Below are positions 36,910 through 54,140 of a DNA stretch of 64,000 bases, in pieces; the first letter of the stretch is position 1; the number at the start of each line of letters is the position of its first letter. The stretch lies in the sequence record AP019559, one strand, 5' to 3'. The position numbers and the translations under genes are program-made. This DNA comes from Escherichia phage SP15. A model generated the notes under the pieces. That model was not told the DNA's origin. It did no database searches and saw only the letters and a program-made list of their open reading frames with translations.

Positions 36910-37439
36910 TAACACAGGAAAGGCTAAAAGAGTTATTTGATTACTCCCCAGAAACTGGGGAGTTTACTAGAAAAGTATCTAGAGGTAATCAGAAAGCTGG
37001 TAGTATAATAACCAGAAAAGACTCTAACGGTTATATAATTATTGGTATAGATGGCAAGGGTTACAAAGCCCATCGGATGGCTTTTCTATTTATGGAAAAT
37101 ACATTGCCGGAAAAAGTAGACCATGTAAACAGAATACCTTTTGATAATAGGTGGTGTAATCTAAGAGACGCCACAGCTCAGGAAAATAGTAGAAATAAAA
37201 CCGCATGTAGTAAGTCTGGATATTTGGGAGTTGCTTGGGATATCGAAAAACAAAGATGGAGAGTTCAAGTAAGAGACTCTAATAGCACTCTTAAAAATGG
37301 TGGCAGATTTAAGTATGAAGAGCTAGAGCTAGCTGTAAATTCAGCAAATATATTAAGGACTAAGTTACATGGAGAACGTGCTGTTATAGAAATTTTTGAT
37401 ACATCCAATTATCCTTCACTGGAGGAGTTAAATTCATGA
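36906..37439 (+). CDS. HNH homing endonuclease (HNH_3 plus AP2-like domain)
   Basis: YKAHRMAFLFMENTLPEKVDHVNRIPFDNRWCNLR; paralogous to 26062..26514. Confidence 0.65.
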   Translation: MITQERLKELFDYSPETGEFTRKVSRGNQKAGSIITRKDSNGYIIIGIDGKGYKAHRMAFLFMENTLPEKVDHVNRIPFDNRWCNLRDATAQENSRNKTACSKSGYLGVAWDIEKQRWRVQVRDSNSTLKNGGRFKYEELELAVNSANILRTKLHGERAVIEIFDTSNYPSLEELNS

Positions 37440-38326
37440 GTCGAATAACAGAATTACTTGATCTTAAGGGAATTGAGTATAAAGATACTGGTGGAGATAT
37501 TTTAATCTGTTGTCTCAATCCAGATCATGACGATAAACACCCAAGTTTGCGTATTGACCCTGAAACAGGTATTATGCACTGCTTGAGTTGTGGCTTCGGT
37601 AAAGGTATACCGAGCATTTACCATTATTTTAATGAGACTCAGTACCGACAGTCCCCAAGGCTATCACAAGTACGTAAAAAGATTTCAGAGATTAGGAATG
37701 GATCAACGAATCTTGCAATTCCTGAATCTGCTTACCTTTTTGAAGGTGATTTCCGAGGTATAAGTTCTAAGACCTTGAAGAAATATTTTGCTTTCCAACA
37801 CCAAGCAGACTGGGAAGGCAGAATCGTATTCCCAATCACAGATGCTGTTGGACGCAATATCCTATTTTTGGGTCGTTCTATAAACAGTTCTGCCCCTCCT
37901 AAATACTTAGTAAAACCAAAACAAGTTTCACCGCCAATTTTTCCTGTACGATATAATACTCCAGTTCTTATTCTAGTTGAAGGCATCTTTGATATGCTGA
38001 ACCTAGAGGATAATGGTATAGACTACGCTTCTTGCTGCTTTGGTACACATCAGTTTACTTCGGATAACATTGCAGATAAGTTCAGTCCTTATATTATTGC
38101 CGGTGTAAAAGTTGTTGTTATCTTACTAGATAATGATGCTTCTGGTAATAAAGCTGCACAAGCATTGGCCAAGCTAATTCGTACAAAAACGCGTTTAACA
38201 CCTGTAGTTGCTAACTTTCTTCTGCCTGAAGGTAAAGACCCGGGTGACTTAAATAAAGAAGAGATTGATATGTTAGCAAAACGTATTGAAATTTTAGTTG
38301 CTGAATCGCTTAAAGATTTGGTATAA
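37436..38326 (+). CDS. DNA primase (Zn-ribbon plus Toprim)
   Basis: CCLNPDHDDKHPSL...CLSCGFGKG Zn-binding; Toprim LILVEGIFDML...LLDNDASGNKAA. Confidence 0.8.
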   Translation: MSRITELLDLKGIEYKDTGGDILICCLNPDHDDKHPSLRIDPETGIMHCLSCGFGKGIPSIYHYFNETQYRQSPRLSQVRKKISEIRNGSTNLAIPESAYLFEGDFRGISSKTLKKYFAFQHQADWEGRIVFPITDAVGRNILFLGRSINSSAPPKYLVKPKQVSPPIFPVRYNTPVLILVEGIFDMLNLEDNGIDYASCCFGTHQFTSDNIADKFSPYIIAGVKVVVILLDNDASGNKAAQALAKLIRTKTRLTPVVANFLLPEGKDPGDLNKEEIDMLAKRIEILVAESLKDLV

Positions 38327-38352
38327 TAGTCCTAAATAACTGAGGAGCTACT

Positions 38353-38682
38353 ATGGAATATGTATATATTTACGAGGATGTTCCAGTATACGATAGTATA
38401 ACACACGAAGAGGTTAAACTAGAGCTGTTTACAGTACTAGAGTCCCTTAATAAACGGAAGGATTTTCATTTATTTGGTGATCCTAAATTACCTGCATCTT
38501 ATATTTTCTTTAAAGTAAAAGATACAGGTCAAGAGGTGTATCTAACTTATGATTGGGCTGTTGTAGAAAATACTGAGCAATCTATGAAAGTGTTAGGTGC
38601 TTTTCTGCGTATAGTTGAAGAATTTCAGGCACTAGAAAAGCAGCGCAATGAAATGCGTAAATTACTACATACCTATAAATAG
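38353..38682 (+). CDS. hypothetical protein
   Basis: 109-aa ORF. Confidence 0.5.
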   Translation: MEYVYIYEDVPVYDSITHEEVKLELFTVLESLNKRKDFHLFGDPKLPASYIFFKVKDTGQEVYLTYDWAVVENTEQSMKVLGAFLRIVEEFQALEKQRNEMRKLLHTYK

Positions 38683-38685
38683 TAT

Positions 38686-38714
38686 TTGCTATTATCCCAA
38701 TATTTTGATATAAT
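38686..38714 (+). promoter_or_regulatory. T5-type early promoter for DNA polymerase gene
   Basis: TTGCTA-17 nt-TATAAT. Confidence 0.55.
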
Positions 38715-38717
38715 ATA

Positions 38718-38762
38718 TTGGTAAGTTAGAGAAGAAACACTGAAGTTATACTTACTTACCAA
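38718..38762 (+). promoter_or_regulatory. 5' UTR stem-loop immediately upstream of the DNA polymerase SD (candidate translational operator)
   Basis: Perfect 9-bp stem TTGGTAAGT/ACTTACCAA, 27-nt loop, ends 1 nt before AGAGGAG and the TTG start. Confidence 0.45.
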
Positions 38763-38775
38763 GAGGAGATTAAAT

Positions 38776-41343
38776 TTGAAAATCGCAGTAGTTGATAAAG
38801 CCCTAAATAACACTCGTTATGATAAACATTTCCAGCTATACGGCGAGGAAGTTGATGTATTCCATATGTGTAACGAGAAGTTGTCCGGTCGTTTGCTCAA
38901 AAAGCATATTACTATCGGGACTCCGGAAAACCCATTTGACCCGAATGATTATGATTTTGTTATACTGGTAGGTGCCGAACCTTTCCTGTACTTTGCAGGT
39001 AAAAAAGGTATTGGTGATTATACCGGTAAACGTGTAGAGTATAATGGGTATGCTAACTGGATTGCGAGTATCAGCCCAGCCCAGTTACACTTTAAACCTG
39101 AAATGAAACCAGTTTTTGATGCAACAGTAGAGAATATCCACGATATTATCAATGGTCGTGAGAAGATTGCAAAAGCTGGTGATTACCGTCCTATTACTGA
39201 CCCTGATGAGGCAGAAGAATATATCAAGATGGTGTATAATATGGTTATCGGACCTGTCGCATTCGACTCCGAAACCTCAGCACTATACTGTCGAGATGGT
39301 TATCTGCTTGGTGTTTCTATTTCTCACCAAGAGTATCAGGGTGTATATATCGATTCTGATTGTCTCACAGAGGTTGCAGTATATTACCTCCAGAAAATTC
39401 TGGATAGTGAAAACCACACTATTGTTTTTCACAACTTGAAGTTTGATATGCACTTTTATAAGTACCATCTGGGACTTACTTTTGATAAAGCACATAAAGA
39501 ACGCAGGCTCCATGATACCATGTTGCAGCACTATGTTCTAGATGAACGTCGGGGTACTCATGGCTTGAAATCTCTAGCAATGAAGTATACCGATATGGGT
39601 GACTATGACTTCGAACTAGATAAGTTCAAAGATGATTACTGCAAAGCACATAAAATCAAGAAAGAAGATTTCACCTATGATTTAATTCCGTTTGATATTA
39701 TGTGGCCTTACGCTGCGAAAGATACAGATGCCACCATACGTTTGCACAACTTCTTCTTACCAAAAATTGAGAAGAATGAAAAACTTTGCAGTCTGTATTA
39801 CGATGTTTTGATGCCTGGTTGCGTATTCTTGCAACGTGTTGAAGATCGTGGTGTACCTATTTCTATTGATCGTTTAAAAGAAGCTCAATATCAGTTAACC
39901 CATAATCTGAATAAGGCCCGTGAGAAACTGTACACTTATCCAGAAGTTAAACAGCTAGAACAAGATCAGAATGAAGCATTTAACCCAAACTCTGTTAAGC
40001 AGCTACGTGTTCTTCTGTTTGATTACGTTGGCTTAACTCCAACAGGTAAACTGACGGATACTGGAGCAGATTCTACGGATGCAGAAGCTCTAAATGAACT
40101 GGCTACGCAGCATCCAATTGCTAAAACTCTGCTAGAGATTCGTAAGCTGACTAAGCTGATCTCTACTTATGTTGAGAAGATTCTACTGAGTATTGATGCA
40201 GATGGTTGCATTCGTACTGGTTTCCATGAACATATGACTACTTCTGGTCGTCTGAGTTCTTCTGGTAAACTGAACCTGCAACAGTTACCTCGTGATGAAT
40301 CTATTATCAAGGGTTGTGTAGTAGCTCCTCCGGGGTATCGTGTAATCGCATGGGACTTAACAACTGCGGAAGTTTATTATGCTGCTGTTCTATCTGGGGA
40401 TAGAAATATGCAACAAGTATTTATCAACATGAGAAATGAACCTGATAAATACCCTGACTTCCACTCTAACATCGCACACATGGTATTTAAGCTCCAATGC
40501 GAACCTCGTGATGTTAAAAAGTTATTCCCAGCTCTGCGTCAAGCAGCTAAAGCAATTACCTTTGGTATTTTGTATGGTTCTGGCCCAGCTAAAGTAGCTC
40601 ATTCTGTTAACGAAGCTCTTCTGGAGCAGGCTGCTAAGACAGGCGAACCGTTTGTAGAGTGTACTGTTGCAGATGCTAAAGAGTACATTGAAACTTACTT
40701 CGGTCAGTTCCCGCAGCTTAAGCGTTGGATTGATAAGTGCCACGATCAGATCAAGAATCATGGATTTATCTACAGTCACTTTGGTCGTAAACGTCGTCTG
40801 CATAATATCCACTCCGAAGACCGTGGTGTTCAGGGTGAAGAAATCCGTTCTGGATTTAACGCAATCATTCAGTCTGCTTCTTCTGATAGTCTCCTTTTAG
40901 GTGCTGTAGATGCAGATAATGAGATCATTTCTCTTGGCCTAGAACAAGAGATGAAGATTGTTATGCTGGTTCATGACTCCGTAGTTGCTATTGTTCGTGA
41001 AGACTTGATTGATCAATACAATGAAATCCTGATTCGTAATATTCAGAAAGACCGTGGTATCAGTATTCCTGGCTGTCCGATTGGTATTGATTCAGATTCT
41101 GAAGCTGGAGGTTCTCGTGACTATTCTTGCGGTAAGATGAAGAAACAGCACCCATCAATCGCTTGTATTGATGATGATGAATATACTCGTTATGTTAAAG
41201 AAATGCTACTTGATGCAGATTTCGAGTATAAGAAATTAGCTGCAATGGATAAAGAGCATCCAGATCATAGCAAGTACAAGGATGATAAGTTTATTGCTGT
41301 ATGTAAAGATCTGGATAACGTGAAAAGGATTCTCGGTGCTTAA
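38776..41343 (+). CDS. DNA polymerase, family A, with 3'-5' exonuclease domain
   Basis: Exo motif VAFDSETSALY, Pol A motifs; TTG start 38776 after AAGAGGAG. Confidence 0.9.
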   Translation: MKIAVVDKALNNTRYDKHFQLYGEEVDVFHMCNEKLSGRLLKKHITIGTPENPFDPNDYDFVILVGAEPFLYFAGKKGIGDYTGKRVEYNGYANWIASISPAQLHFKPEMKPVFDATVENIHDIINGREKIAKAGDYRPITDPDEAEEYIKMVYNMVIGPVAFDSETSALYCRDGYLLGVSISHQEYQGVYIDSDCLTEVAVYYLQKILDSENHTIVFHNLKFDMHFYKYHLGLTFDKAHKERRLHDTMLQHYVLDERRGTHGLKSLAMKYTDMGDYDFELDKFKDDYCKAHKIKKEDFTYDLIPFDIMWPYAAKDTDATIRLHNFFLPKIEKNEKLCSLYYDVLMPGCVFLQRVEDRGVPISIDRLKEAQYQLTHNLNKAREKLYTYPEVKQLEQDQNEAFNPNSVKQLRVLLFDYVGLTPTGKLTDTGADSTDAEALNELATQHPIAKTLLEIRKLTKLISTYVEKILLSIDADGCIRTGFHEHMTTSGRLSSSGKLNLQQLPRDESIIKGCVVAPPGYRVIAWDLTTAEVYYAAVLSGDRNMQQVFINMRNEPDKYPDFHSNIAHMVFKLQCEPRDVKKLFPALRQAAKAITFGILYGSGPAKVAHSVNEALLEQAAKTGEPFVECTVADAKEYIETYFGQFPQLKRWIDKCHDQIKNHGFIYSHFGRKRRLHNIHSEDRGVQGEEIRSGFNAIIQSASSDSLLLGAVDADNEIISLGLEQEMKIVMLVHDSVVAIVREDLIDQYNEILIRNIQKDRGISIPGCPIGIDSDSEAGGSRDYSCGKMKKQHPSIACIDDDEYTRYVKEMLLDADFEYKKLAAMDKEHPDHSKYKDDKFIAVCKDLDNVKRILGA

Positions 41344-41833
41344 TTTCAAATTGCCCGTCTATGCGTTACGGGCGTTTGTATCAATTGAGCAAGAAGGTGA
41401 TTATTCCGTAATTACAACAAGATATAATAAATATGTGCTAGATAACAGGAAGTTGCCTGGCACGTTTTCTCAACGTAGGCTTATTCTATTTGAGAAACGG
41501 AAAGAATTACCATACAAGCTCTATCCTATTAGAGGTAGAATATCAATGTTGTCTCAATTAGTTGGGTCAAAGCGTAACCAATTTATAGATTCTGATGGAA
41601 ATCTTATTAATTGGAAGAAAACTACGTTCTACGATGTTGTCACCTCTAAAGTTTTGCATTCAGCTAGAATTTATAATGGAAAATACCAATGCTATGTGGC
41701 TAAAGTCCCTTATCCATTTGTATTATCCTATGTTCCAGCTTATATAAGCTATATTCTGGTAAATAATAGCCCTGTTATTTATCAAGTCCATCAAGAGGAG
41801 CCTGAAATTCCTAGACTTAGAATAAAATTATGA
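41336..41833 (+). CDS. hypothetical protein (no in-frame ATG until codon 69; GTG start)
   Basis: GTG 41336 after AAAGGA; translationally coupled to downstream helicase (ATGA overlap). Confidence 0.4.
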   Translation: MLNFKLPVYALRAFVSIEQEGDYSVITTRYNKYVLDNRKLPGTFSQRRLILFEKRKELPYKLYPIRGRISMLSQLVGSKRNQFIDSDGNLINWKKTTFYDVVTSKVLHSARIYNGKYQCYVAKVPYPFVLSYVPAYISYILVNNSPVIYQVHQEEPEIPRLRIKL

Positions 41834-43182
41834 AGGTTGTTATATCTAATAAAGCCTATTTCAAGCCCGATGATGAACTTTGGGATTATTGTAGTAAGCA
41901 AACCACTTATCACATAGAGACAATGACTAGTAAATACCCTATTATGTATAAGAATAGTGGTGTTGTTGCCAAAGAGATTAAGTGGATTCCTATTACGCGT
42001 CTGGACTTACTAGATGCTAAAGGAGTAAAATACGAATTAGTCGATAAACGCACATTAGCTCCGGTAGATATACCAAAACCTAAGTTCAAACTGCGTGAAG
42101 AAGATCAGCTTCCAATATATGAAGAATGCGATGATACCTGTATTATTAATGGTAAGCCTGGATTTGGTAAGACTATTCTAGCCCTTGCACTTGCGTATAA
42201 ATTTGGCCAGAAAACTTTGGTAATCTGTACGAATACATCCATTCGTGAAATGTGGGCGGCAGAAGTTCGTAAATGGTTTGGGTTTGAACCAGGCATCATA
42301 GGTTCTGGGAAATACAATATTGATCCACCAATTGTAGTCAGTAATATTCAAACAGTGAATAAACATGCGAATAATCTTTCTAAAGTATTTGGTACTGTTA
42401 TAGTTGATGAAGTTCACCATTGTGTGGCTACAACTTTCACTAACTTCCTAGAAATATCATGTGCTCGCTATAAAATTGGACTATCCGGCACACTAAAACG
42501 AAAAGATGGTTTACAAGTTATGTTCAAAGATTTCTTTGGATATAAGATATTTAGCCCGCCGGTTAATAATACTGTTGCACCTACAATCCATAGGTACTCC
42601 GTGCCTGTTGAGCTATCAGGAAACCAAAACGTGCCGTGGGCATTACGTGCTAACGATGTGTATAATCATCCTGAATATCGAGAGACTATTATAAACCTAG
42701 CACATTTATATGTGAATATGGGACATAAAGTACTCATTGTAAGTGATAGAACAGAGTTAATCCAAACAGTACTAGAAGCACTATCTCAGCGAGGAGTCAC
42801 AACCTATGAGATTATTGGCGCAACCCACTTAGATAACCGATTAAAAATTCAGGAAGATATAGCAAAAGGTGGCCCTTGTGTACTTGCAGCAGCTCAAAGT
42901 ATCTTCTCTGAAGGTATTTCCCTTAATGAGCTATCTTGTTTAATAATGGGAAGCCTCATTAATAATGAATCTCTCATTGAACAGCTTGCAGGCCGTGTTC
43001 AACGTATTGTCGATGGTAAACTCGACCCTATTGTTGTAGATCTAATTATGAAAGGTGGCACTGGACTAAGGCAGGCTTCTGGACGGATGGCAGTATATCG
43101 TAACAATGGGTGGAAAACTATTACTATGACTCCTGAGAAAGCAGTTCAATTAGCTAAAATTGCATTTGGCAACAGCTCATAA
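41830..43182 (+). CDS. SF2 DNA helicase (T5 D10-like)
   Basis: Walker A GKPGFGKT, DEAH-like VDEVHH, helicase C-terminal motifs. Confidence 0.8.
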   Translation: MKVVISNKAYFKPDDELWDYCSKQTTYHIETMTSKYPIMYKNSGVVAKEIKWIPITRLDLLDAKGVKYELVDKRTLAPVDIPKPKFKLREEDQLPIYEECDDTCIINGKPGFGKTILALALAYKFGQKTLVICTNTSIREMWAAEVRKWFGFEPGIIGSGKYNIDPPIVVSNIQTVNKHANNLSKVFGTVIVDEVHHCVATTFTNFLEISCARYKIGLSGTLKRKDGLQVMFKDFFGYKIFSPPVNNTVAPTIHRYSVPVELSGNQNVPWALRANDVYNHPEYRETIINLAHLYVNMGHKVLIVSDRTELIQTVLEALSQRGVTTYEIIGATHLDNRLKIQEDIAKGGPCVLAAAQSIFSEGISLNELSCLIMGSLINNESLIEQLAGRVQRIVDGKLDPIVVDLIMKGGTGLRQASGRMAVYRNNGWKTITMTPEKAVQLAKIAFGNSS

Positions 43183-43194
43183 ATGATGTATAAT
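43166..43194 (+). promoter_or_regulatory. promoter copy 1 (no ORF immediately downstream)
   Basis: TTGGCA-17 nt-TATAAT followed by conserved leader ATATACATAAATTTGAGAGAG. Confidence 0.45.
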
Positions 43195-43265
43195 ATATAC
43201 ATAAATTTGAGAGAGAAAGTTTCGGATTGATAAGAAAGTCCGAAGCAGAAAAATAAAAATTTTAG

Positions 43266-43295
43266 TTGCTAAATTCTCTCGAAATCTAGTATAAT
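43266..43295 (+). promoter_or_regulatory. promoter copy 2 upstream of SSB-like gene region
   Basis: TTGCTA-18 nt-TATAAT followed by ATATACATAAATTCGAGGAG. Confidence 0.5.
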
Positions 43296-43402
43296 ATATA
43301 CATAAATTCGAGGAGAAAACAAAAATTAAATTCTTCGATTATGAAAAGCTATACTTACTAGCTAGAGGAAATTCCGACCTAATTATTAAGTTATTCAAAA
43401 GA

Positions 43403-43687
43403 ATGCTTATAGAGCCTGATGCTCACCAATTATTGGTCGGTTCCTCATTCATTTTGAATGAGTCAACAATAGTTGATAATCCAAATAAATTGTCTAATAG
43501 ACAACTGGCAGAATATCTAGGAATTTTAAGTCTACGAAATTATGCCGAATACAAGTTTACAAACGATCCTAGTTTGAACATACAATATGTTCCAGTATGG
43601 ATACCACGTTTAGTAATCGACACTAACCCACTAATCGCAATTAACAAATCGAAATTAATCTTTAAAGAGGAAATAAAATATGGCTAA
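43403..43687 (+). CDS. hypothetical protein (weak; may be 5' UTR)
   Basis: 94-aa ORF without recognisable RBS. Confidence 0.25.
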   Translation: MLIEPDAHQLLVGSSFILNESTIVDNPNKLSNRQLAEYLGILSLRNYAEYKFTNDPSLNIQYVPVWIPRLVIDTNPLIAINKSKLIFKEEIKYG

Positions 43688-44453
43688 GTCTTGGGGCGAA
43701 ACTACTGGCGGTTCTAACGATAAAATCGAATTCCTGAAGTTCAACAACGGTATCACTCGTGTTCGTATCGTTTCTGGTGTTCTTCCACGTTATGTCTATT
43801 GGCTGACTAATAAAGAGGGTAACGTAGCTCCTTTCGAATGTCTCCGTTTTAACCGTGACAAAGAGAGCTTTGTTCGTGGTAAAGCTGATCCAGTTCATGA
43901 GATGGGCTTCTTCGAGAAAGAGCTGGATAAAGATGGTAATCGTGTTCCGCTGAAACCGAAGAAAAACTATATCGCTTTTGTTATCGACCGTTCTGATAAC
44001 AAACTGAAAGTAATGGAAGTCAAGGCTACTATTCTGAAAGGCATCCAGTCTATCATGAAGCAGTTGAATCTGGCAACTCCGTTTGATATTGATATTTCTA
44101 TCGAGAAAAAAGGTAAAGGTTTCGATACTGAGTATGATGTGCAGCAGATTGCTGCTATGCAGTTCCAGATTAAGCTGCAAGACCCTAACAGTGCGGAATC
44201 TAAGCAATATGCTGCGGATGTAGATCTGATCGGTGAAGCTATGTGTGATGAAGATGGCGACATCATTAAGTTCGAAAAAGTTCCTTCTCTGGAACAAACC
44301 TATCCGGTTCCTACCTATGAAGAGCAGAAAGAAGCAATTCAAGCCTTCATGGAAGGTCGTGAGAATAAAGATGATGATGCCAAATCTGGTAATAGCAATG
44401 CAGGCTCCCAGAAAGGTATTGACACAGAAGCTGCAAGCGATCTGGACGACTAA
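43680..44453 (+). CDS. putative ssDNA-binding protein with acidic C-terminal tail; highly expressed codon usage
   Basis: 257 aa, AAGAGGA RBS, acidic tail ending ASDLDD, strong codon bias. Confidence 0.45.
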   Translation: MAKSWGETTGGSNDKIEFLKFNNGITRVRIVSGVLPRYVYWLTNKEGNVAPFECLRFNRDKESFVRGKADPVHEMGFFEKELDKDGNRVPLKPKKNYIAFVIDRSDNKLKVMEVKATILKGIQSIMKQLNLATPFDIDISIEKKGKGFDTEYDVQQIAAMQFQIKLQDPNSAESKQYAADVDLIGEAMCDEDGDIIKFEKVPSLEQTYPVPTYEEQKEAIQAFMEGRENKDDDAKSGNSNAGSQKGIDTEAASDLDD

Positions 44454-44458
44454 TAAAT

Positions 44459-44486
44459 AGAGGGGCTTCGGCCCCTTTCTTTTTAA
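44459..44486 (+). terminator. rho-independent terminator after SSB-like gene
   Basis: AGGGGCTTCGGCCCCT then TTCTTTTT. Confidence 0.65.
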
Positions 44487-44489
44487 CAA

Positions 44490-45467
44490 ATGAGAATATT
44501 ATTTAGTGCTGATCATCATATCAAACTAGGACAAGATAAAGTTCCAAAGGAATGGCAGAAGCGTCGCTTCCTGATGCTAGGAGAACGGTTAAATGATATA
44601 TTCCATAATCATAACTGTGATCTTCATATTGCTGGTGGTGATATACTTGATGTTGCCGACCCGTCGTCAGAAGAAATAGAACTGCTTGAACAGTTCATGT
44701 CAAGACTTGACCATCCAGGCAAAATCTTTACTGGAAATCATGAAATGTTAACGAAAACCATTTCATGCCTATATCATTATGCAGGAGTTATTAATAAAGT
44801 AACGAGTGGGAAGTGGGAGGTAGTTACCAAACCATATCGTTCCCCTGAATTTGATATTGTTCCGTATGATGAAATCCATAAGTCTAAGTGGAAACCATCT
44901 GAATCAAAACTATGTTTCACGCATGTTCGTGGTGAAATCCCTCCACATGTAAAACCAGAAATTGATCTAACTAAGTACAACTGTTATGATACTGTAATTG
45001 CTGGCGATTTACACTCTTATACTAATAGCCAGACTATCGGATCTACCAGACTCCTCTACCCAGGGTCTCCATTAACTACATCGTTCCATAGAGAACGCAC
45101 AAAAGGTACAAATGGTTGCTTTATCGTTGATACCGACACATTAAAAGTAGAATGGATTGAACTAGGTGATTTACCACAACTGATTCGTAAAACAATCGGA
45201 GCGGGTGAAGAGATGGAACCTAGTGATTATGATCGTGTAGTCTATGAAGTTACTGGTGACGTTGTTCAATTAAAGTCTATCAAAGACTCTGATTTATTAG
45301 ATAAGAAGATTAACCATCGAGTTACTAAAGACGCTAAGTTAAATCTTGTTGATCTTGATATGTTAGGTGAACTTGAACTTTACTTCCGTGAAGTTGAGAA
45401 GCTATCTCAAGGTGACATTGATAGAATCTTGGCTAGAGCTGCGAAATATGTCAAAGATTACAATTAA
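44490..45467 (+). CDS. SbcD/Mre11-like nuclease (T5 D12-like)
   Basis: Calcineurin-like phosphoesterase motifs DHH, GD..D, GNHE. Confidence 0.75.
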   Translation: MRILFSADHHIKLGQDKVPKEWQKRRFLMLGERLNDIFHNHNCDLHIAGGDILDVADPSSEEIELLEQFMSRLDHPGKIFTGNHEMLTKTISCLYHYAGVINKVTSGKWEVVTKPYRSPEFDIVPYDEIHKSKWKPSESKLCFTHVRGEIPPHVKPEIDLTKYNCYDTVIAGDLHSYTNSQTIGSTRLLYPGSPLTTSFHRERTKGTNGCFIVDTDTLKVEWIELGDLPQLIRKTIGAGEEMEPSDYDRVVYEVTGDVVQLKSIKDSDLLDKKINHRVTKDAKLNLVDLDMLGELELYFREVEKLSQGDIDRILARAAKYVKDYN

Positions 45468-47286
45468 GACACTAAAATTTAGTAACGTTATGTCTTACGG
45501 TAAGGACATCGTAATTCATTTCGACAAGAATCCAGTTACTCAACTAATTGGTGGCAATGGGCTAGGGAAATCCACCATCGCTACGGTTATCGAGGAATTG
45601 TTTTATAACAAGAACTCACGGGGTATTAAGAAAGATGCTCTGTTCTCTTGGTCTTCTCCGAAAAAAGAGTATGATATGCACGCTTATTTCTCGAAAGATG
45701 AAGATGAGTATGAATTGCATAAAGTAGTTAAGTCAACTGCTAAAGTAACTCTTATTAAGAATGGGGAAGATATTAGTGGACACACGGCAACCCAAACATA
45801 CAAGATGATTGAGGAGATTATGGGCGGTGACTTCCAAACATTCACCAAACTAATTTATCAATCAGTGGGTTCCAATCTAGACTTTCTAAAAGCAACAGAT
45901 GCAACACGTAAGGCTTTTCTTGTCAACTTGTTCAATCAAGAACAGTATAAAGAAATGTCAGAAACTATTAAGGCTGATCGTAAAGAAATAGCAAATACCT
46001 TAAATAATTTGCAGGGCCAAATGGCTGTAATTACGAAAATCCTTAATGGAAAGAATAATCTGGGAACTTTGCAGGAACCTGTAGAAGTACCAGAGTTTGA
46101 TGAAGAGCCATTAGCACAAGAACTTACTGAATCGAAAATTAAGGCGGCATTAGCCAAGTCTCAAGAGGCTAATATTACTAAATTGCGTAATTTGGACAAA
46201 GCTGTACAAGTTGCCGAACAATCTTTCGAGCCTTTCAAAAATTTACCCGCGCCCACTGACCAAAATGAAGAGATCTCGAGTGTTACGCGTGACCTAACGA
46301 TTGTGACCTCACGTGCGAGCGAAGTTAAGAAACGTTATCAGAAGTTCAAGCAAGAGGCTTCAAATACTGAATGTCCTACCTGTGGTACTCATCTGGATAC
46401 AACTGCTGCGCAAAAAGCAATGGATATGGCTAGAACAGAATATGATCCTCTGTTCAAAGAGAAGCAATCTCTTGAAGCTAAGCTAGAACAGTTGAAGAAA
46501 GAACAACTTGAGTACGTTGCATATACTAGAGCAAGGGATGCTTTGGATAAGGCAGTAGCATCTAGAGACGAATTCAAAAATTCAATGAGTGATACTTCTT
46601 TTGAAGAACTCAATGTGCAAAACCTACAGGTGCAAATCCGACAACTAGAACAGGAAATCGCTGATGGCCGTTCTAAGGTTGCAATTGCCAAAGAGCATAA
46701 TGCAAATGTTGAATTAGCCAATGCAAAATATAAAGCGAAACTAGAACAGATTGAGAAAGCTGAGGCAGAAATGTCTGAGATTACTTCCAAACTGGATGGA
46801 GTATCAGAAGCTGTTGCTGATCTCGATATTCTGATTGCTGCATTGAAGAATCTAGTAGGATATAAACTAGAGCATAGTGTGAAAGTATTTGAAGAGCTTA
46901 TCAATAAATACCTTTCTATTATGACTGGCGGTAAATTCGCACTTGGATTTGAACTTGATGAAACAAAATTACAAGTAGTAATCTTCAATGATGGAAATCG
47001 TACCAGTATGGAGAACTGCTCTACTGGTCAACAGAGTCGAATTAACCTAGCAACCCTGTTAGCTATTCGGATGCTGTTAACATCTATTAGTAAAGTTAAT
47101 ATTAATCTTCTATTCCTTGATGAAGTAATTAGCTTTATTGATACAAAAGGACTTGATACTCTTGTTGAATTATTAAATGAGGAAGAAAGTCTAAATTCTA
47201 TCATTGTTTCTCATGGGCATACGCATCCATTAGCCCATAAGATTACTGTCAAAAAAGATGCAGAAGGATTTTCCTACTTAGAATAA
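45448..47286 (+). CDS. SbcC/Rad50-like ATPase (T5 D13-like)
   Basis: Walker A GGNGLGKST, coiled-coil, Walker B LLFLDEV; start at ATG 45448 overlapping the SbcD-like stop by 20 nt. Confidence 0.75.
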   Translation: MSKITIKTLKFSNVMSYGKDIVIHFDKNPVTQLIGGNGLGKSTIATVIEELFYNKNSRGIKKDALFSWSSPKKEYDMHAYFSKDEDEYELHKVVKSTAKVTLIKNGEDISGHTATQTYKMIEEIMGGDFQTFTKLIYQSVGSNLDFLKATDATRKAFLVNLFNQEQYKEMSETIKADRKEIANTLNNLQGQMAVITKILNGKNNLGTLQEPVEVPEFDEEPLAQELTESKIKAALAKSQEANITKLRNLDKAVQVAEQSFEPFKNLPAPTDQNEEISSVTRDLTIVTSRASEVKKRYQKFKQEASNTECPTCGTHLDTTAAQKAMDMARTEYDPLFKEKQSLEAKLEQLKKEQLEYVAYTRARDALDKAVASRDEFKNSMSDTSFEELNVQNLQVQIRQLEQEIADGRSKVAIAKEHNANVELANAKYKAKLEQIEKAEAEMSEITSKLDGVSEAVADLDILIAALKNLVGYKLEHSVKVFEELINKYLSIMTGGKFALGFELDETKLQVVIFNDGNRTSMENCSTGQQSRINLATLLAIRMLLTSISKVNINLLFLDEVISFIDTKGLDTLVELLNEEESLNSIIVSHGHTHPLAHKITVKKDAEGFSYLE

Positions 47287-47289
47287 AAC

Positions 47290-47772
47290 ATGGCTGTAGA
47301 TAGTAGAGAGAAAGGTAAACGTGGTGAATATCAGGTAAGAGATATTCTACGTGAGCGTACAGGTCTTGAGTGGGAACGTGTTCCTGGCTCTGGTGCTTTT
47401 GGCCAGAGCCACGGATTGAAGGGTGACATCTACCTTCCACCACAAAGCGGACACATTAGTAAATACTGCTTCGAAGTTAAGTGGTATAAAGATGATAATA
47501 TATCAAGTAATTTATTTAATGTTGGTGAATCCACTCTAGAGAAGTGGTGGCAGCAGTGCTCACGTGAAGGCGAGCAGATGAACTCCAAACCTGCATTAAT
47601 ATTCAAAAAAGACAGAGGACAGTGGTTAATAGCTTTGGATAGCTCAGACCCGATGGTTGACAACTTAATGAGTCGTACCCATATGGTGTTAAATAAGAAA
47701 GACATGGAAATCGTAATTGGTTTATTTGAACCGTGGCTACATCATGCATCTGTTGAGGACTTAATTAAATAA
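47290..47772 (+). CDS. putative PD-(D/E)xK nuclease / Holliday-junction resolvase-like protein
   Basis: 160 aa with GKRGE...D...E.K-like pattern. Confidence 0.4.
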   Translation: MAVDSREKGKRGEYQVRDILRERTGLEWERVPGSGAFGQSHGLKGDIYLPPQSGHISKYCFEVKWYKDDNISSNLFNVGESTLEKWWQQCSREGEQMNSKPALIFKKDRGQWLIALDSSDPMVDNLMSRTHMVLNKKDMEIVIGLFEPWLHHASVEDLIK

Positions 47773-48647
47773 TGAGTAAATCCTGGGGAAAATTTATTGA
47801 AGAAGAGGAAGCTGAAATGGCTTCCCGTCGTAACCTAATGATTGTTGATGGAACTAACTTAGGCTTTCGCTTCAAGCATAACAATAGTAAAAAACCCTTT
47901 GCCTCAAGTTATGTTTCTACAATTCAATCTCTAGCAAAATCTTATTCTGCTAGAACTACAATAGTTTTAGGGGATAAAGGAAAGTCTGCATTCCGCTTAG
48001 AGCATCTTCCCGAGTATAAAGGGAATCGAGATGAGAAATACTCTCAGCGCACGGAAGAGGAGAAGGCGTTAGATGAGCAGTTCTTCGAGTATTTGAAAGA
48101 TGCTTTCGAACTATGTGAAACTACATTCCCAACCTTCACTATTCGTGGCGTAGAAGCAGATGATATGGCAGCTTATATTGTTAAGCTGATTGGGCATCTA
48201 TATGATCATGTTTGGCTAATTTCTACCGATGGTGACTGGGATACTTTATTAACTGATAAAGTTTCTCGCTTCTCTTTCACAACACGTCGTGAATATCATC
48301 TTCGTGATATGTACGAGCATCATAATGTTGACGATGTAGAGCAGTTTATCTCTCTGAAAGCAATTATGGGTGATTTAGGAGATAATATCCGTGGTGTTGA
48401 GGGCATTGGGGCAAAACGCGGGTATAACATTATTCGTGAATTTGGTAACGTTCTGGATATTATTGATCAGCTTCCACTGCCTGGAAAACAGAAATATATA
48501 CAGAATTTAAATGCTTCGGAAGAGTTGCTTTACCGAAACCTAATTCTGGTTGATTTACCTACCTACTGTGTGGATGCTATTGCTGCTGTAGGTCAAGATG
48601 TATTAGATAAGTTTACAAAAGATATTTTGGAGATTGCAAAACAATGA
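47772..48647 (+). CDS. 5'-3' exonuclease / flap endonuclease (T5 D15 exonuclease)
   Basis: 291 aa; sequence matches T5 exonuclease as I recall it (MSKSWGKFIEEEEAEMASRRNL...), FEN motifs. Confidence 0.9.
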   Translation: MSKSWGKFIEEEEAEMASRRNLMIVDGTNLGFRFKHNNSKKPFASSYVSTIQSLAKSYSARTTIVLGDKGKSAFRLEHLPEYKGNRDEKYSQRTEEEKALDEQFFEYLKDAFELCETTFPTFTIRGVEADDMAAYIVKLIGHLYDHVWLISTDGDWDTLLTDKVSRFSFTTRREYHLRDMYEHHNVDDVEQFISLKAIMGDLGDNIRGVEGIGAKRGYNIIREFGNVLDIIDQLPLPGKQKYIQNLNASEELLYRNLILVDLPTYCVDAIAAVGQDVLDKFTKDILEIAKQ

Positions 48648-49090
48648 TTAAAATTAAACTAACTCATCCAGATTGTATGCCTAAGATTGGTTCCGAAGAT
48701 GCCGCAGGTATGGATCTGCGAGCATTCTTTGGTACTAACCCTGCCGCAGATTTACGCGCTATTGCACCAGGCAAATCCTTAATGATTGACACCGGTGTCG
48801 CGGTAGAAATTCCGCGAGGTTGGTTCGGTTTGGTAGTTCCTCGCAGTTCTTTAGGTAAACGCCATTTGATGATTGCAAATACCGCAGGAGTGATTGACTC
48901 AGACTATCGTGGAACTATTAAGATGAACTTGTTCAATTACGGTTCTGAAATTCAAACTCTGGAGAATTTTGAAAGACTTTGTCAGTTAGTAGTAGTACCG
49001 CACTATTCAACTCATAATTTTGAAATCGTTGACGAACTAGGGGAGACTGATCGTGGGGAAGGCGGATTTGGAAGCTCAGGAAGTAAATAA
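48644..49090 (+). CDS. dut: dUTPase
   Basis: Motifs AGMDLRA, PRSSL, GVIDSDYRG, RGEGGFGSSG. Confidence 0.9.
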   Translation: MIKIKLTHPDCMPKIGSEDAAGMDLRAFFGTNPAADLRAIAPGKSLMIDTGVAVEIPRGWFGLVVPRSSLGKRHLMIANTAGVIDSDYRGTIKMNLFNYGSEIQTLENFERLCQLVVVPHYSTHNFEIVDELGETDRGEGGFGSSGSK

Positions 49091-49109
49091 TCTACGTATC
49101 AAATAAATA

Positions 49110-49146
49110 ATAAACCCCAGTGGATTTTGTCCACTGGGGTTTTCTT
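49110..49146. terminator. bidirectional terminator between convergent early (dut) and late (tail fibre) units
   Basis: 10-bp stem CCCCAGTGGA/TCCACTGGGG flanked by A-run and T-run. Confidence 0.7.
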
Positions 49147-49149
49147 ACA

Positions 49150-50898
49150 TTACTGCACTAGGTTTGCTCTTAATTGCTTGAGTTCTTCCTCTAAGTCTTC
49201 AACCCTTTTAATAAGATCCTGCACAACATGCATAGTATCAAGAAGCATTGGAGTTGTATCTAATTCCTTTTGCTCCTGTTCTACTCCGTCATCATTATAG
49301 AATCTTCTAGTCTTTACATAGAGTGGCTCTATAGTCTCTACTTGCTGTGCAATAACCCCACGTCGGATACGAGATTTTTCATCGTTATTATATATAAAGG
49401 ACTGGAATTCTAATCCTTTTAATACCTCGATGGACTTAGTTGCATCTATAGCTTTAATATCATGCTTTAAACGAGAATCAGATATAGCATTTAACTGCAG
49501 AGTATACGTTGCTGCGCCATTGGGCCACCAAGAATAGAAATAAATACTATTATTGTTCGGTTGAATTTTTAAACGTACACCATATCTGTTATCCGCGTCT
49601 CCCGATACGTGCCAGCAAGAATCAGCAAAGGAACCTAAGTCATTATGAATTAATCCAAAATGTGCAGATGTTTTATACCCCGCATTAGAATACTGGGAAC
49701 CACTCAAAATACTGTTAAAAGCGTAATTTGTTCCAATAGCCTGTTCTTCTGTACTAAATGTACCTTTAACAAGACCTGTTTCACTCCAAGCCATCATAGT
49801 CCCATAGCGGGCGCTATATCTATCAGAGTTTAATGTACCTGTGTCATCAAAGGCAAGGTCTTTTGTCACCCCTTTTGTCTTGTTGTATACAGACAGAATC
49901 GCATAATAAAGGCCATCCATGTACGCATCGCAACGAAGGCCAGCATCAGCTTCAACAACGGTGCCGATTTTGTATTGCGCCTTTACCTGCCCAGAGTATG
50001 CTCTTACTCCAGAACCTGGGCGAACAGCATCACCATTGATCACACTCCAAGAGGTATTCGCAGCAACAAATCCACCAGATGCACGAATCACCCAGACGCC
50101 GACAAAGTTTCGTGTAAGGATTTCGTCATTTGATGCCCCGTAGATCGGGCTTGAGCGTGACGCATCAATCTCAAGGGTGTTGTAGCGCCCAGATATTGAA
50201 ATTGCACCCGTCATTGGGATTGCATCACCTGCCGCAGCAGGGTATAGATCATTACTTGTTCTAAATGCACCTTGATTGATATCGCTGAATACCTGAGCAT
50301 ATGACGAGCCAGAATAACTAGCAATACGCCCATAGATATTAGGCGCAGCGGATTCAAAAACACGCCCGTTAGCGTCGGACATACCACCATCTCCACGGCC
50401 ATAAAGAGCACGTATTGATCCCTCCTGCACCCCATTCTTATCTGGAACACGAAAAGTTGTTGCTCCGTCACCATTAGAGTATTTGCCACGCTGGAATTTA
50501 TCAGCTAACCATACCGAATCCTCTATAACACCAACCATTTGAGCGTACGCCCAAAGCTCCGGCCAGTCGGCTCTATTAAGAAGTTGTCCATCAGAAACCA
50601 CTTCGTACGGTTGGATATACGCACGACTATCTCGAAGGTGGAAATCACCAACCCCGTAATTCATAACGCCGTTCATAGTAGGACCGACTGTGCCAGTATT
50701 AATCTTATTCTCCACCCAACGTTTAGTTGCAGCGTCATAGTCTCTCACAGGATCCCCCGCAAGAGGGGTAGACCCAATAGGACGTACATTTAGCCATGCT
50801 GCTGCACGGTCCGCAAGATCGGATAAGTTATTACTTTTATCCATCTTTTCATCTTTAAGTTTTGTAATGTCCCGAGGGATATTAGTATAAGTAGTCAT
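49150..50898 (-). CDS. tail fibre protein with C-terminal intramolecular chaperone domain (LtfB-like receptor-binding fibre)
   Basis: C-terminal S74-type chaperone signature (SDSRLKHDI...GLEF...GVIAQQVE) and coiled-coil end; GAGGTG RBS. Confidence 0.65.
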   Translation of the reverse strand: MTTYTNIPRDITKLKDEKMDKSNNLSDLADRAAAWLNVRPIGSTPLAGDPVRDYDAATKRWVENKINTGTVGPTMNGVMNYGVGDFHLRDSRAYIQPYEVVSDGQLLNRADWPELWAYAQMVGVIEDSVWLADKFQRGKYSNGDGATTFRVPDKNGVQEGSIRALYGRGDGGMSDANGRVFESAAPNIYGRIASYSGSSYAQVFSDINQGAFRTSNDLYPAAAGDAIPMTGAISISGRYNTLEIDASRSSPIYGASNDEILTRNFVGVWVIRASGGFVAANTSWSVINGDAVRPGSGVRAYSGQVKAQYKIGTVVEADAGLRCDAYMDGLYYAILSVYNKTKGVTKDLAFDDTGTLNSDRYSARYGTMMAWSETGLVKGTFSTEEQAIGTNYAFNSILSGSQYSNAGYKTSAHFGLIHNDLGSFADSCWHVSGDADNRYGVRLKIQPNNNSIYFYSWWPNGAATYTLQLNAISDSRLKHDIKAIDATKSIEVLKGLEFQSFIYNNDEKSRIRRGVIAQQVETIEPLYVKTRRFYNDDGVEQEQKELDTTPMLLDTMHVVQDLIKRVEDLEEELKQLRANLVQ

Positions 50899-50908
50899 TA
50901 ATCACCTC

Positions 50909-51175
50909 TTATGCCCAGTTACGTACACGGGGATTCTTAATAATAAATTGTTCAAGATTTGATAAGTCCACATCGTCCCCTATTATTCTTATGTTTATAT
51001 AATACCCCTCTTTGCCAATGACAACTGGAGTCTTACTTTTAGGGTCATCTACTAGGAGGACAAAACCAATTTCATCTACAAACACTTTACCATAGTTTGT
51101 CTTAAGCCACTCACTATCAATGACAACATCCCGATAATGTTTTTCGTCTTTAAATTGCAAATTAATATCTTTCAT
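50909..51175 (-). CDS. hypothetical protein inside tail-fibre locus
   Basis: 88 aa, GAGGGAGAAAG RBS, start overlaps ltfA stop (TAAAATG). Confidence 0.5.
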   Translation of the reverse strand: MKDINLQFKDEKHYRDVVIDSEWLKTNYGKVFVDEIGFVLLVDDPKSKTPVVIGKEGYYINIRIIGDDVDLSNLEQFIIKNPRVRNWA

Positions 51176-52639
51176 TTTAAACTTTCTCCCTCATTTGATT
51201 ATCCGTTAATACTCGATTCCATATTCTAAGGTTACGAATATGACCGTACAATTTTGACGGATCAGTTGGTCTTCCACCTATTTCCACTAGCGAGTCCGAG
51301 TCCGTTCCTTTCCATGTAAAACCGTGTGAGGTCCCACCTTTATTCCCATTAACAAACGATGTGACATCCCCATTACCACTAAAAATAAAACCAAATATAT
51401 GTGGAGAAAATTTATTTTCAAACGAATAACCTCTAGACAACGTAGCTGATTCATCCTCATTTAGTACATACGTGTAAGGTGTCACGGAGATTATGTCAAA
51501 TTCCGCAATAAATGCTTTTCCTCCTACATTGTATTGATTATTATCAATTATCATTGGGTATATATTATTTAATTGAAAGCTATCCCAGTTAACGCTCACT
51601 TCAGCAAGGAATGAAATATTCGTCCCCGAGAAATTATTTCTTGCAGGTATAGTAACATAATCCAGAGTCCTTGTTGCAGGCGTGCTTCCCGTAATAATGA
51701 AGGAGGATGCACAAAAGCCCTTTTCAAATTGCGGAGTACAAAATGATATTGTATCCCCAACTTGCACAGGTTGATCATTATTTCGACAATAATTTACAGA
51801 TCCAATAGAACTACCTCCACGTTCTACAAATTTACACATAGCTTCAACTTTCAACCATCCGTTGTCTTCTCTATATATTCTATGTGTTATAGTCCCTCTC
51901 CCTTCTACTACAGAAGAAACTTCGCCGGTTTCGCAATTTATGAAAGATCTAGCGCCGAGAATAAGACCTCCATCCTCACCTACTAAATAAAATTGTGGGG
52001 TGATATAGATATCCAAGTTTGCCTTTACTCGTATAGATAAAGAAACGTATTCATTTTGCTGACAGTTGATTGCATTTACTGTTTCACAATAAAATAATGA
52101 AGGATACTCACCTTGTGAATTTTCGTTTGCTGTTGCGGTTGCATATGCAAAACCATACTTATCAATATTATAAGTAACATCACTACGGTATTTATCTGTA
52201 TTTAATGAAGCGGGGTCATTACTGAAAGTAATGTGATTTGTCCGCTGGCCTTCAATTAAGAGTCCTTGCTTTTCAAATCTAGGTTCATCGATATTAGCAA
52301 TACAAAATTCACCATGCTTATTTATATATGTTGCGTTTGATGCACGCGAGAAACTAACAACCTTATCAGAAGGCATTGTAATAACATCTTCACCAACTGT
52401 TATTTTCTTATAGCCTGGTGAATAACCTGCAAGCATATCAAGCGAGTCATTAAATGGAATCCATACGTCAGGGAATGGTTGAAGATCCGGAGCCCTGTTA
52501 GCTGCAACTTCCGCACGGTCTGCTTCTGTTTTTGCACGGTCTGCTTCTGCTTTAGAGCTGTTTGCACTACCAGCAGCATTGCTAGCTTGTTGCCCGGCCT
52601 CAATAGCACTATTACCAGCTTGTGTAGCAGAAGCAGCAG

Positions 52640-52870
52640 CTTGGTTTTTTAAAGCTGTTGTATCAGATACCGCGCTATCCTTAATACCTTGTGTATCCGT
52701 TTTTAATTGCTCAACATCTGCTTTTAAAGTTGTTATCTCGGATACCGAGCTATTTTTAATGGCCTGGGTATCAGATTTTAACTGTTCTACATCTGCTTTT
52801 AAAGCTGTTGTCTCTGTTACAGCACTATTTTTAATGGACTGGGTATCAGATTTTAACTGTTCGACATCTG
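52640..52870. repeat. three in-frame 66-bp tandem repeats encoding 22-aa fibre shaft repeats
   Basis: Protein repeats KADVEQLKSDTQ.IKNS.VS..T.L x3 in ltfA. Confidence 0.7.
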
Positions 52871-53023
52871 ATTTAAGTCCTTGAATAGCAGCTACAGATT
52901 GGCTGGCAGAAGTTGCAGATCCCGCAGCATTAGTTTCACTAGCCTTAGCTTTTGTTTCCGAGGTTTTTGCATTGGTTTCAGAGATTTTTGCCGCAGATGC
53001 CGATGCAGCAGCTTGCCCAGAAA

Positions 53024-53211
53024 ATATTTCCGCCTCATTCCTAAAACCGCTAGAATCAGCCGCTGATTGAGCTGCATTAGTCTCACTTGCCTTTGCGTTA
53101 CCCTCGCTAAGTTTTGCATATTTCCGCCTCATTCCTAAAACCGCTAGAATCAGCCGCTGATTGAGCTGCATTAGTCTCACTTGCCTTTGCGTTACCCTCG
53201 CTAAGTTTTGC
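53024..53211. repeat. perfect 94-bp direct tandem duplication (2 copies) inside ltfA
   Basis: Units 53024-53117 and 53118-53211 are identical; unit length is not a multiple of 3. Confidence 0.9.
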
Positions 53212-53717
53212 ATCAGCCGCTGATTGAGCTGCATTAGTCTCACTTGCCTTTGCGTTACCCTCGCTAAGTTTTGCAGCAGTAGCTGATGCGTCAGCGTTAG
53301 TTTCACTAGTCTTTGCATTAGTTTCACTAGCCTTTGCGTTAGTTTCACTAGTTTTTGCGTTAGTCTCAGATATTTTTGCAGCCGCCGCTGATTCTGCAGA
53401 TCTATCCGCGGATGCAGCAGATTGAGTAGCAGATGTAGCGGATTGAGTAGCAGAAGTTTCAGAAGCTCCAGCAGAAATAGCAGCTTCCTGTTCAGAGTTC
53501 TTAGCGTTAAGTTCCGAAGTCTTAGCAGCTATCTCAGAATCTTTTGCAGCTGCAGCAGACTTAGCTGCTGCCTCAATAGAAGATACTAACTCACTTGCAG
53601 TAATAGAACTAATAGAGTTACCAAGAGTTACTGTATATCTAGGAAATTTACTCGCAGTAGCCTTAGTATCATCAATATTTAATATCTGTTGTACAATAAT
53701 TTTAGTAGTTACTGCCA

Positions 53718-54140
53718 TTATTTAGTTACCCCATCACTGATAAATACTTTACCCTCCATTATACGAAAGGAGCTAATTGCAGATCCTATAACATCTCTAG
53801 TCATAATTATATCATAGTATCCTGCGAATCGCTGACGAGGATTATACTTATCTCTATCTTTAGATGCTTTAGCTCCTATATTTTCCACGGATTCTACGGG
53901 TAAACTTATAGCTACAGCTCCTTGAGCAGCATCAATAATATTAGTAGTAAAGGATGCTAATATCTCCGCATTCTCATCTAGGCTACTTTTTATAGTGCCC
54001 CTTAAAGAATACCCAGTTAAGTTAACGGGGGTATTTGTAGGTGGATAAGCACTATCATCAACGTCTAAGAACTGCATCATTAGACCATATGGTACATTTT
54101 CGTCTATTACTAAATCTATAACTCTATTTTCAGTACTCAT
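53718..54140 (-). CDS. tail collar protein (T5 p132-like)
   Basis: 140 aa at the position of p132 between pb4 and ltf. Confidence 0.6.

Follow-up and report, generated by a model that had tools for sequence, protein, structure and literature searches.

The genes downstream of ltfA in Escherichia phage SP15 most probably form the distal two-thirds of a lateral tail fibre operon with the order ltfC-ltfA-small gene-fibre B, of the type carried by phages AKFV33, SelmaRatti (Bas34) and IrisVonRoten (Bas32). The stretch analysed, referred to here as the window, comprises 64,000 nucleotides (nt) of sequence record AP019559, and positions are those of the whole window unless another record is named. 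Between ltfA and the gene of a distal fibre of 582 amino acids (aa), called fibre B in this work, lies an open reading frame (ORF) of 88 aa. Both ORFs were found where an earlier reading of the letters alone (the sequence-only reading) had located them (Table 1). Gene content, domain content, homologies, synteny rules and module boundaries were computed in this analysis; we infer every physical contact, the binding of glycans and what the small protein does.

Organization of the locus

As in the AKFV33, Bas32 and Bas34 loci, the proximal fibre of the window has a LamG-type end, a phrog_1361 gene abuts its stop codon, and a fibre that starts with the anchor motif follows about 10 nt downstream. 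A single nucleotide separates the ltfA stop from the ATG of the small gene (TAA A ATG), and 10 bases separate the small-gene stop from the start of fibre B. The Shine-Dalgarno sequence of the small gene (AGGGAG) lies within the 3' end of ltfA, and that of the fibre B gene (GAGGTGA) is located 5 bases ahead of its start. The three genes are annotated as intact in SelmaRatti, AKFV33 and IrisVonRoten, and the layout was also observed in Queuovirinae, including VogelGryff and JenP1. LtfC occupies an equivalent position in DT57C and SelmaRatti.

Table 1. Features of the lateral tail fibre region in the window
Feature	Position	Strand	Basis
Intrinsic terminator, 13-bp stem with 7 G-C pairs	49112..49142	.	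Terminator scan and sequence
Distal lateral tail fibre (fibre B), 582 aa	49150..50898	-	ORF; phrog_6921, E 1e-204
Intramolecular chaperone region of fibre B, aa 473-582	49153..49482	-	Pfam match and motif position
Peptidase_S74 Pfam core, aa 473-525	49324-49482	-	Pfam
N-terminal ~20 residues of fibre B, MTTYTNIPRDITKLKDEKMD, anchor motif T-x-I-P-x-D-I-T-x-L-K	50839..50898	-	Motif common to fibre B proteins
88-aa putative accessory protein, phrog_1361 / phrog_18574 family	50909..51175	-	ORF; phrog_1361 match
Proximal lateral tail fibre gene ltfA, disrupted; 815 aa when repaired	51177..53718	-	ORFs of 203 and 723 aa; phrog_1419, E 9e-200
C-terminal lectin-like module of LtfA, 427 aa	51180..52460	-	Gene transfer agent (GTA) head-spike-fibre-like domain and LamG jelly roll
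Laminin_G_3 in the LtfA C-terminal module	51195-51449	-	
Perfect tandem duplication, 2 x 94 nt, frameshifting ltfA	53024..53211	.	Copies 100% identical
LtfC, collar protein attaching the lateral fibres	53718..54140	-	Pfam LtfC, E 1e-14; phrog_34807

Comparison with known lateral tail fibres

T5 pb1 (Ltf) is a single L-shaped fibre of 1396 aa. The sequence-only reading had set the locus apart from it as a split one, and this distinction held, with separate ltfA, small and fibre B genes in the window. The N-terminal ~200 residues of pb1 are 52% identical to LtfA once the latter is repaired (see below), and both loci encode an intramolecular chaperone at the C-terminus of a fibre. The T5 fibre differs in being one polypeptide, in lacking BLASTP similarity to fibre B and in having no homologue of the small gene in its region. 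It had also been considered that the ORFs of the window might be fragments of one pb1-like gene broken by frameshifts. Although the adjacent ltfA is truly broken by a frameshift, this explanation carries practically no weight. LtfA, the small protein and fibre B exhibit no mutual similarity, and neither of the latter two matches pb1. The small gene and the fibre B gene each possess their own Shine-Dalgarno sequence and start codon, and dozens of phages and prophages carry the same three genes in intact form. The alignment with pb1, which is confined to the first ~200-230 aa of LtfA, points the same way, and nothing corresponding to the 88-aa ORF is present in the fibre regions of T5 or DT57C.

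The layout seen here was first noted in AKFV33 as ltpA (ORF137), ORF136 and ltpB (ORF135); ORF137 was detected in virions, and ORF136 is never discussed in that study (Niu et al. 2012, PMC3326045). Gene order and spacing in AKFV33 are identical to those of the window, its LtfA carries the LamG-type end motif, and identity reaches 79.5% for the small protein, 95% for residues 1-20 of fibre B and 98% for residues 21-120. AKFV33 differs in its intact ltfA and in the distal part of fibre B, which after residue ~300 is only 6-33% identical, indicating a different receptor-binding allele. The closest locus overall is bas34_0021-0023 of SelmaRatti, which aligns with the window over 82% of the 5.2-kb region (88% identity in nucleotides), with 90.2% identity in the fibre B protein and 80.7% in the small protein; it differs in a shorter LtfA (537 aa), which is intact.

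Gp22, Gp23 and Gp24 of IrisVonRoten were modelled in 2025. In that model (Humolli et al. 2025, PMC11990801), Gp24 is T-shaped and comprises a gp12-like receptor-binding domain (RBD1), a T5-like RBD2 and an intramolecular chaperone. It attaches to Gp22, the proximal fibre, and the galectin-like C-terminal domain of Gp22 is a candidate for an additional receptor-binding domain. The window shares with this phage the succession of a galectin/LamG-ended proximal fibre, a ~90-aa gene and a distal fibre, which in the window is putatively T-shaped as well; full-length alignment of fibre B with Gp24 gives 70.7% identity. IrisVonRoten differs in its joint, which is of another subtype (small protein 31.5% identical, last 120 residues of LtfA ~31%, residues 1-20 of fibre B 60%).

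The sequence-only reading had instead likened the locus to the LtfA/LtfB arrangement of DT57C. A branched LtfA-LtfB fibre has reportedly been treated for DT57C and DT571/2 in work of Ayala et al. from 2023. In DT57C both fibres end in S74, the first 45 residues of LtfB resemble phiEco32 gp15, and residues 223-471 of LtfA resemble phiEco32 gp14 and constitute the docking region (Golomidova et al. 2016, PMC4728585). If the window encoded such a fibre, LtfB would dock by its gp15-like domain to the middle of LtfA, each protein with its own S74 tip. Several likenesses exist: an LtfC collar gene directly upstream, two fibre genes downstream of it, a pb1-like LtfA N-terminus that is 55% identical to DT57C LtfA, and stem and S74 modules as in fibre B, which matches LtfB residues 206-528 at 61% and LtfA residues 508-1074 at 45% identity.

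However, the features that define the DT57C branch are absent from the window. Fibre B starts with MTTYTNIPRDITKLK, whereas DT57C LtfB starts with MSRPLMPKSG and the gp15-like protein of IME267 with MSRELMPKSG, and the BLASTP alignment of fibre B to LtfB begins only at query residue 30 and LtfB residue 206. Past its N-terminus, LtfA shows only a weak low-complexity match to DT57C LtfA (residues 328-451 vs 179-290, E 6e-4) in place of a gp14-like docking region, and it ends in Laminin_G_3 rather than S74. Moreover, ltfA and ltfB of DT57C lie 38 nt apart with no small gene between them. A DT57C-type branched fibre is accordingly very improbable, and the appropriate comparators for the locus are ORF137/136/135 of AKFV33 and Gp22/23/24 of IrisVonRoten.

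The distal fibre

Membership of the S74 class was judged by a PF13884 match above the gathering score together with the Ser-Asp...Arg...Lys cleavage motif. Fibre B has both: Peptidase_S74 was identified at aa 473-525 (E 5.3e-12; 46.3 bits vs a cut-off of 22), and the SD-R-K motif is found at residue 473 (SDSRLKHDI), which bears out the C-terminal S74-type chaperone ascribed to the protein from the letters alone. Autocleavage is predicted at Ser473/Asp474 on the precedent of K1F and T5 (cited in PMC4728585). Six fibre B proteins from phage genomes were tested, and each ended in S74. Among the prophage forms, one of 234 aa also ends in S74, and one of 330 aa has T4 gp34/gp37-like domains instead. 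Many E. coli prophages encode a very short distal protein of 227-234 aa (loci L093-L183, e.g. L095), in which the anchor motif and a coiled coil precede an S74 chaperone. This chaperone starts at residue 116, which suggests a mature product of only ~115 residues.

Comparison with its relatives revealed that fibre B is a mosaic. Residues 31-120 are near-invariant, variable patches were observed at aa 181-240 and aa 301-390, and the C-terminal third is near-identical to that of SelmaRatti and HMD-P3 and ~20% identical to that of AKFV33 and DT57C. The variable patches are located where a dual-RBD T-shaped fibre, with a gp12-like RBD1 and a T5-like RBD2, would have them. Fibre B would thus be a distal T-shaped fibre whose first ~20 residues, with the motif T-x-I-P-x-D-I-T-x-L-K, may anchor it onto the distal end of LtfA. 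The anchor would be followed by a conserved stem, two variable and putatively receptor-binding patches, and the S74 chaperone, which should fold the trimer and then cleave itself off at Ser473. The proposal of the sequence-only reading that the distal fibre determines host range is plausible on this basis, but it is incomplete. LtfA also carries a lectin-like candidate receptor-binding module, and ltfA is frameshifted in this genome, so that the fibre may not be displayed.

Family and fold of the small protein

The 88-aa protein matched a single family in the PHROG collection, phrog_1361 (E 2.8e-28), which is of unknown function. Its homologues comprise 275 clusters at 90% identity, or ~155 representatives at 50% identity. 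Nearly all are stand-alone proteins of 85-110 aa, with distant members in phrog_18574 and phrog_1361. No Pfam or NCBIfam model and no name was found for any member of the family. Giant proteins (1360-3677 aa, with 5-12 matched stretches) that emerged from an exhaustive profile search were rejected as spurious; they are PKD-repeat proteins in which a weak likeness per repeat (..IDENG.., ..YTVNVTVTDDDG..) adds up. The ratio of nonsynonymous to synonymous substitution rates (dN/dS) of the small gene, calculated against four orthologues, is 0.10-0.13, corresponding to purifying selection and indicating that the ORF is a real gene.

The AlphaFold2 model of the protein, with a predicted local distance difference test score (pLDDT) of 88.5, depicts a beta-alpha-alpha-beta-beta-alpha sandwich. 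The C-terminal tail (P-x-R-x-W-A) is conserved, flexible and modelled with low confidence. Structural neighbours in PDB and BFVD were only generic or uncharacterised, and no sequence or fold match to a known Tfa-type chaperone family was detected. Literature searches covering the papers on DT57C, AKFV33, BASEL (2021/2025), RBPseg and phiHS1 yielded no statement on the function of the small protein or its presence in virions.

Synteny rules and a putative joint module

In all 79 readable IMG/VR loci retrieved with the family profile, the small gene directly follows a LamG-ended fibre gene, whose stop codon it abuts or overlaps by 4 nt and whose product of 600-817 aa terminates in ..GH(I/V)RN(F/L)R(I/V)W..L(T/N)D.Q.. 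This coupling, as a 4-nt overlap or a gap of 0-1 nt, was observed in T5-like phages, Queuovirinae, lambdoid prophages and a Leclercia prophage. On the downstream side, a second fibre gene is located 9-10 nt away in T5-like phages, Queuovirinae and some prophages. Most lambdoid prophages of the 79-locus set, as well as phage 21, have no fibre B and only a membrane protein of ~98 aa downstream; the small gene is intact and fibre B absent in about 60 of these 79 loci, which are those most similar to the small protein of the window. The ~98-aa predicted membrane protein (MDISPLLHALCAVAAQ...) is conserved 9-12 nt past the small gene (L017-L089, e.g. L022 4289-4582; in phage 21, L004, at 4792-5085) and had no Pfam match.

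The opposite direction was explored by a motif-first scan, in which IMG/VR was searched with a DNA pattern encoding T-x-I-P-x-D-I-T-x-L-K. The scan returned 93 matches, 89 of them at codons 5-9 of an ORF. A small-family gene lies directly upstream of the anchor-motif ORF in every case with enough upstream sequence (88/88), and upstream of none of the four out-of-context matches (0/4). The anchor-bearing proteins are otherwise diverse (227-583 aa), most with S74 and one with T4 gp34/gp37-like domains. The dependencies are therefore asymmetric: wherever the distal-fibre anchor occurs, so does the small gene, and the small gene in turn is always accompanied by the LamG-ended fibre, but it is often present without a distal fibre.

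A second joint subtype was identified in phage HMD-P3 and a Leclercia prophage, combining a small protein of 100-101 aa with a distal fibre that starts with MA(L/N)RID. Small forms of 88-92 aa pair with fibre B proteins of the T-x-I-P-x-D-I-T type, and the 100-101-aa forms with the MA(L/N)RID.. type. A degenerate DNA pattern search of genome contigs yielded two loci only, and the one examined, a Leclercia prophage, has the A-small-B layout. Between the window and IrisVonRoten, identity is 97% over residues 21-120 of fibre B, in contrast to 60% over residues 1-20, 32% in the small protein and 31% in the LtfA tail. Residues 1-20 thus vary with the subtype to which the small protein and the LtfA C-terminus belong, and residues 21-120 are independent of it (~97% identity across subtypes). 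This drop places a recombination boundary at residue ~20 and makes the anchor part of the joint module. Identity of the small protein also co-varies with that of the last 120 residues of LtfA (rho 0.77), a co-variation between parts that is confounded by linkage and was used qualitatively only.

Possible role of the small protein

Lambda Tfa, Mu U and T4 gp38, which are tail fibre assembly or tip proteins, are encoded just downstream of fibre genes. As an analogy, the small gene resembles these and the T4 joint proteins gp35/gp36 in standing right after the fibre whose C-terminus would be served and in its pairing with one class of fibre C-terminus. It differs in having no sequence or detectable fold kinship with them and in encoding a protein about half their size. 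Since most lambdoid prophages keep the small gene without fibre B, the gene is tied to LtfA and not to fibre B, and the asymmetric dependencies suggest that its product primarily serves the lectin-like tip of the proximal fibre. The distal fibre, with a chaperone of its own in cis, would do without such a helper. The small protein may accordingly be viewed as a dedicated partner of the LamG-ended proximal fibre, and a tip-bound assembly chaperone or cap is, tentatively, judged its most likely role. It would then act in the role and genomic position that Tfa-type proteins have for other fibres, and a bound cap could also contribute to a docking platform for the anchor of fibre B.

Alternatively, the 88-aa protein could be a structural connector, a knee or hinge like T4 gp35/gp36 that stays in the virion and bridges the LtfA tip and the fibre B anchor. 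The A-small-B gene order mirrors such an order of assembly, the small gene precedes the anchor motif in each of the 88 informative loci, the subtypes of the small protein co-vary with the types of fibre B N-terminus, and the conserved tail looks like a docking peptide. In the many prophages that keep the small gene without a distal fibre, with the ~98-aa membrane protein in its place, there would however be nothing to connect, which renders a pure connector less likely. Mass spectrometry of AKFV33 identified four bands, none of them the small protein, which is weak evidence as only major bands were analysed (PMC3326045).

An ORF unrelated to the fibre, such as a moron or a regulatory protein hitch-hiking in the fibre cassette, would be consistent with the generic small alpha/beta fold and the lack of an annotated homologue. 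It is improbable given how closely and constantly the gene adjoins the stop codon of one fibre class across phage and prophage groups, and given the co-variation with the end of LtfA described above. With the tip chaperone or cap as the favoured role, the prospect is evenly balanced that the whole family (phrog_1361 and phrog_18574) constitutes an obligatory partner of LamG-tipped fibres, either as a new trans-acting tip chaperone or as a subunit of a plug-in joint. In the first case, it would represent a class unrelated to Tfa/gp38; in the second, the joint would consist of the LamG tip, the small protein and the T-x-I-P-x-D-I-T-x-L-K anchor.

The proximal fibre gene and the tandem duplication within it

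In the window, ltfA is split into ORFs of 203 aa and 723 aa by a perfect tandem duplication of 94 nt (53024-53117 = 53118-53211). As 94 is not a multiple of 3, the frame shifts after residue ~200, and in silico removal of one copy restored a single 815-aa ORF. The duplication junction was found nowhere among phage records; NBEco002 and other relatives have a single copy of the unit, in NBEco002 within an intact 816-aa gene. The duplication reflects either a mutation that inactivated the fibre recently or faulty assembly of a stretch rich in repeats. If it is real, neither the fibre shaft nor the lectin module is produced, which leaves the distal fibre without an attachment partner. Unless an assembly error is responsible, the whole fibre of this genome is therefore probably not displayed, and the phage would resemble the known fibreless laboratory stock of T5 (PMC11313276). 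A real duplication would abolish O-antigen targeting, of which users of the phage should be aware.

In-frame DNA repeats make up the ltfA shaft (52647-52874 and 53294-53420), namely three 75-nt units, encoding 25-aa repeats (KADVEQLKSDTQ.IKNS...), and several 21-nt units encoding SETNAK. heptads. Such repeats are a likely hotspot for slippage and unequal recombination. In the deposited record of HMD-P3 (L008 1598-3693), the proximal fibre is annotated as two overlapping coding sequences of 222 aa and 481 aa, which suggests that ltfA lesions recur among sequenced T5-like phages.

The N-terminal ~190-230 aa of repaired LtfA are 52-55% identical to DT57C LtfA and T5 pb1, and its C-terminus is lectin-like, resembling LamG domains and carbohydrate-binding modules (CBM), with Laminin_G_3 (Pfam) and the tail ..GHxRNxRxW..LxDxQ.. 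As a proximal fibre, LtfA would bind the LtfC collar through its N-terminus as in T5, and a long shaft rich in Ala, Ser and Glu would lead to the lectin-like (LamG/CBM-like) end. The closest relatives of the lectin-like module exhibit 73-88% aa identity (hits P0122-P0143), are mostly encoded on ~60-kb contigs and have a prophage/Queuovirinae-type N-terminus (PF08400) rather than a T5-like one. At the DNA level, BRET, SA126VB and phiG7 (59-62 kb) match at 81-87% identity over 2.4-2.7 kb. Together, these relationships indicate cassette exchange between Queuovirinae and T5-like phages.

Genomic context

The fibre operon is closed by the strong terminator of Table 1 against the convergent dut gene (+ strand, end 49090), and T5 has an annotated bidirectional terminator at the equivalent position. 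The gap between dut and fibre B (49091-49149) measures just 59 nt, terminator included. In T5, AKFV33 and SelmaRatti, a T5.132-like ORF runs across the end of dut; neither the window nor IrisVonRoten has it. The sign of the GC skew flips near 49-50 kb (48000-52000), where plus-strand replication genes give way to minus-strand tail genes. The replication-gene backbone (36000-49000) is ~96.7% identical to Escherichia phage slur09, but the fibre region has no relative above ~91% nucleotide identity, which marks the phage as a mosaic.

Implications

Two-protein lateral fibres of T5-like phages were described in 2012 (PMC3326045) and 2016 (PMC4728585), and the present architecture was modelled in 2025 (PMC11990801), so that the locus as a whole adds nothing new. 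Its sole unexplored element is the small accessory protein family, for which the synteny rules are described here and a function is one that we infer. If the plug-in joint is true, T5-like phages, Queuovirinae and lambdoid prophages would swap distal receptor-binding fibres through it. The rules describe a portable joint, with the small gene placed after a LamG-ended fibre, the anchor after the small gene, and the boundary at residue ~20 of the distal fibre. Given a test of the small protein's role, they could be of use in engineering the host range of T5-like and lambda-like phages.

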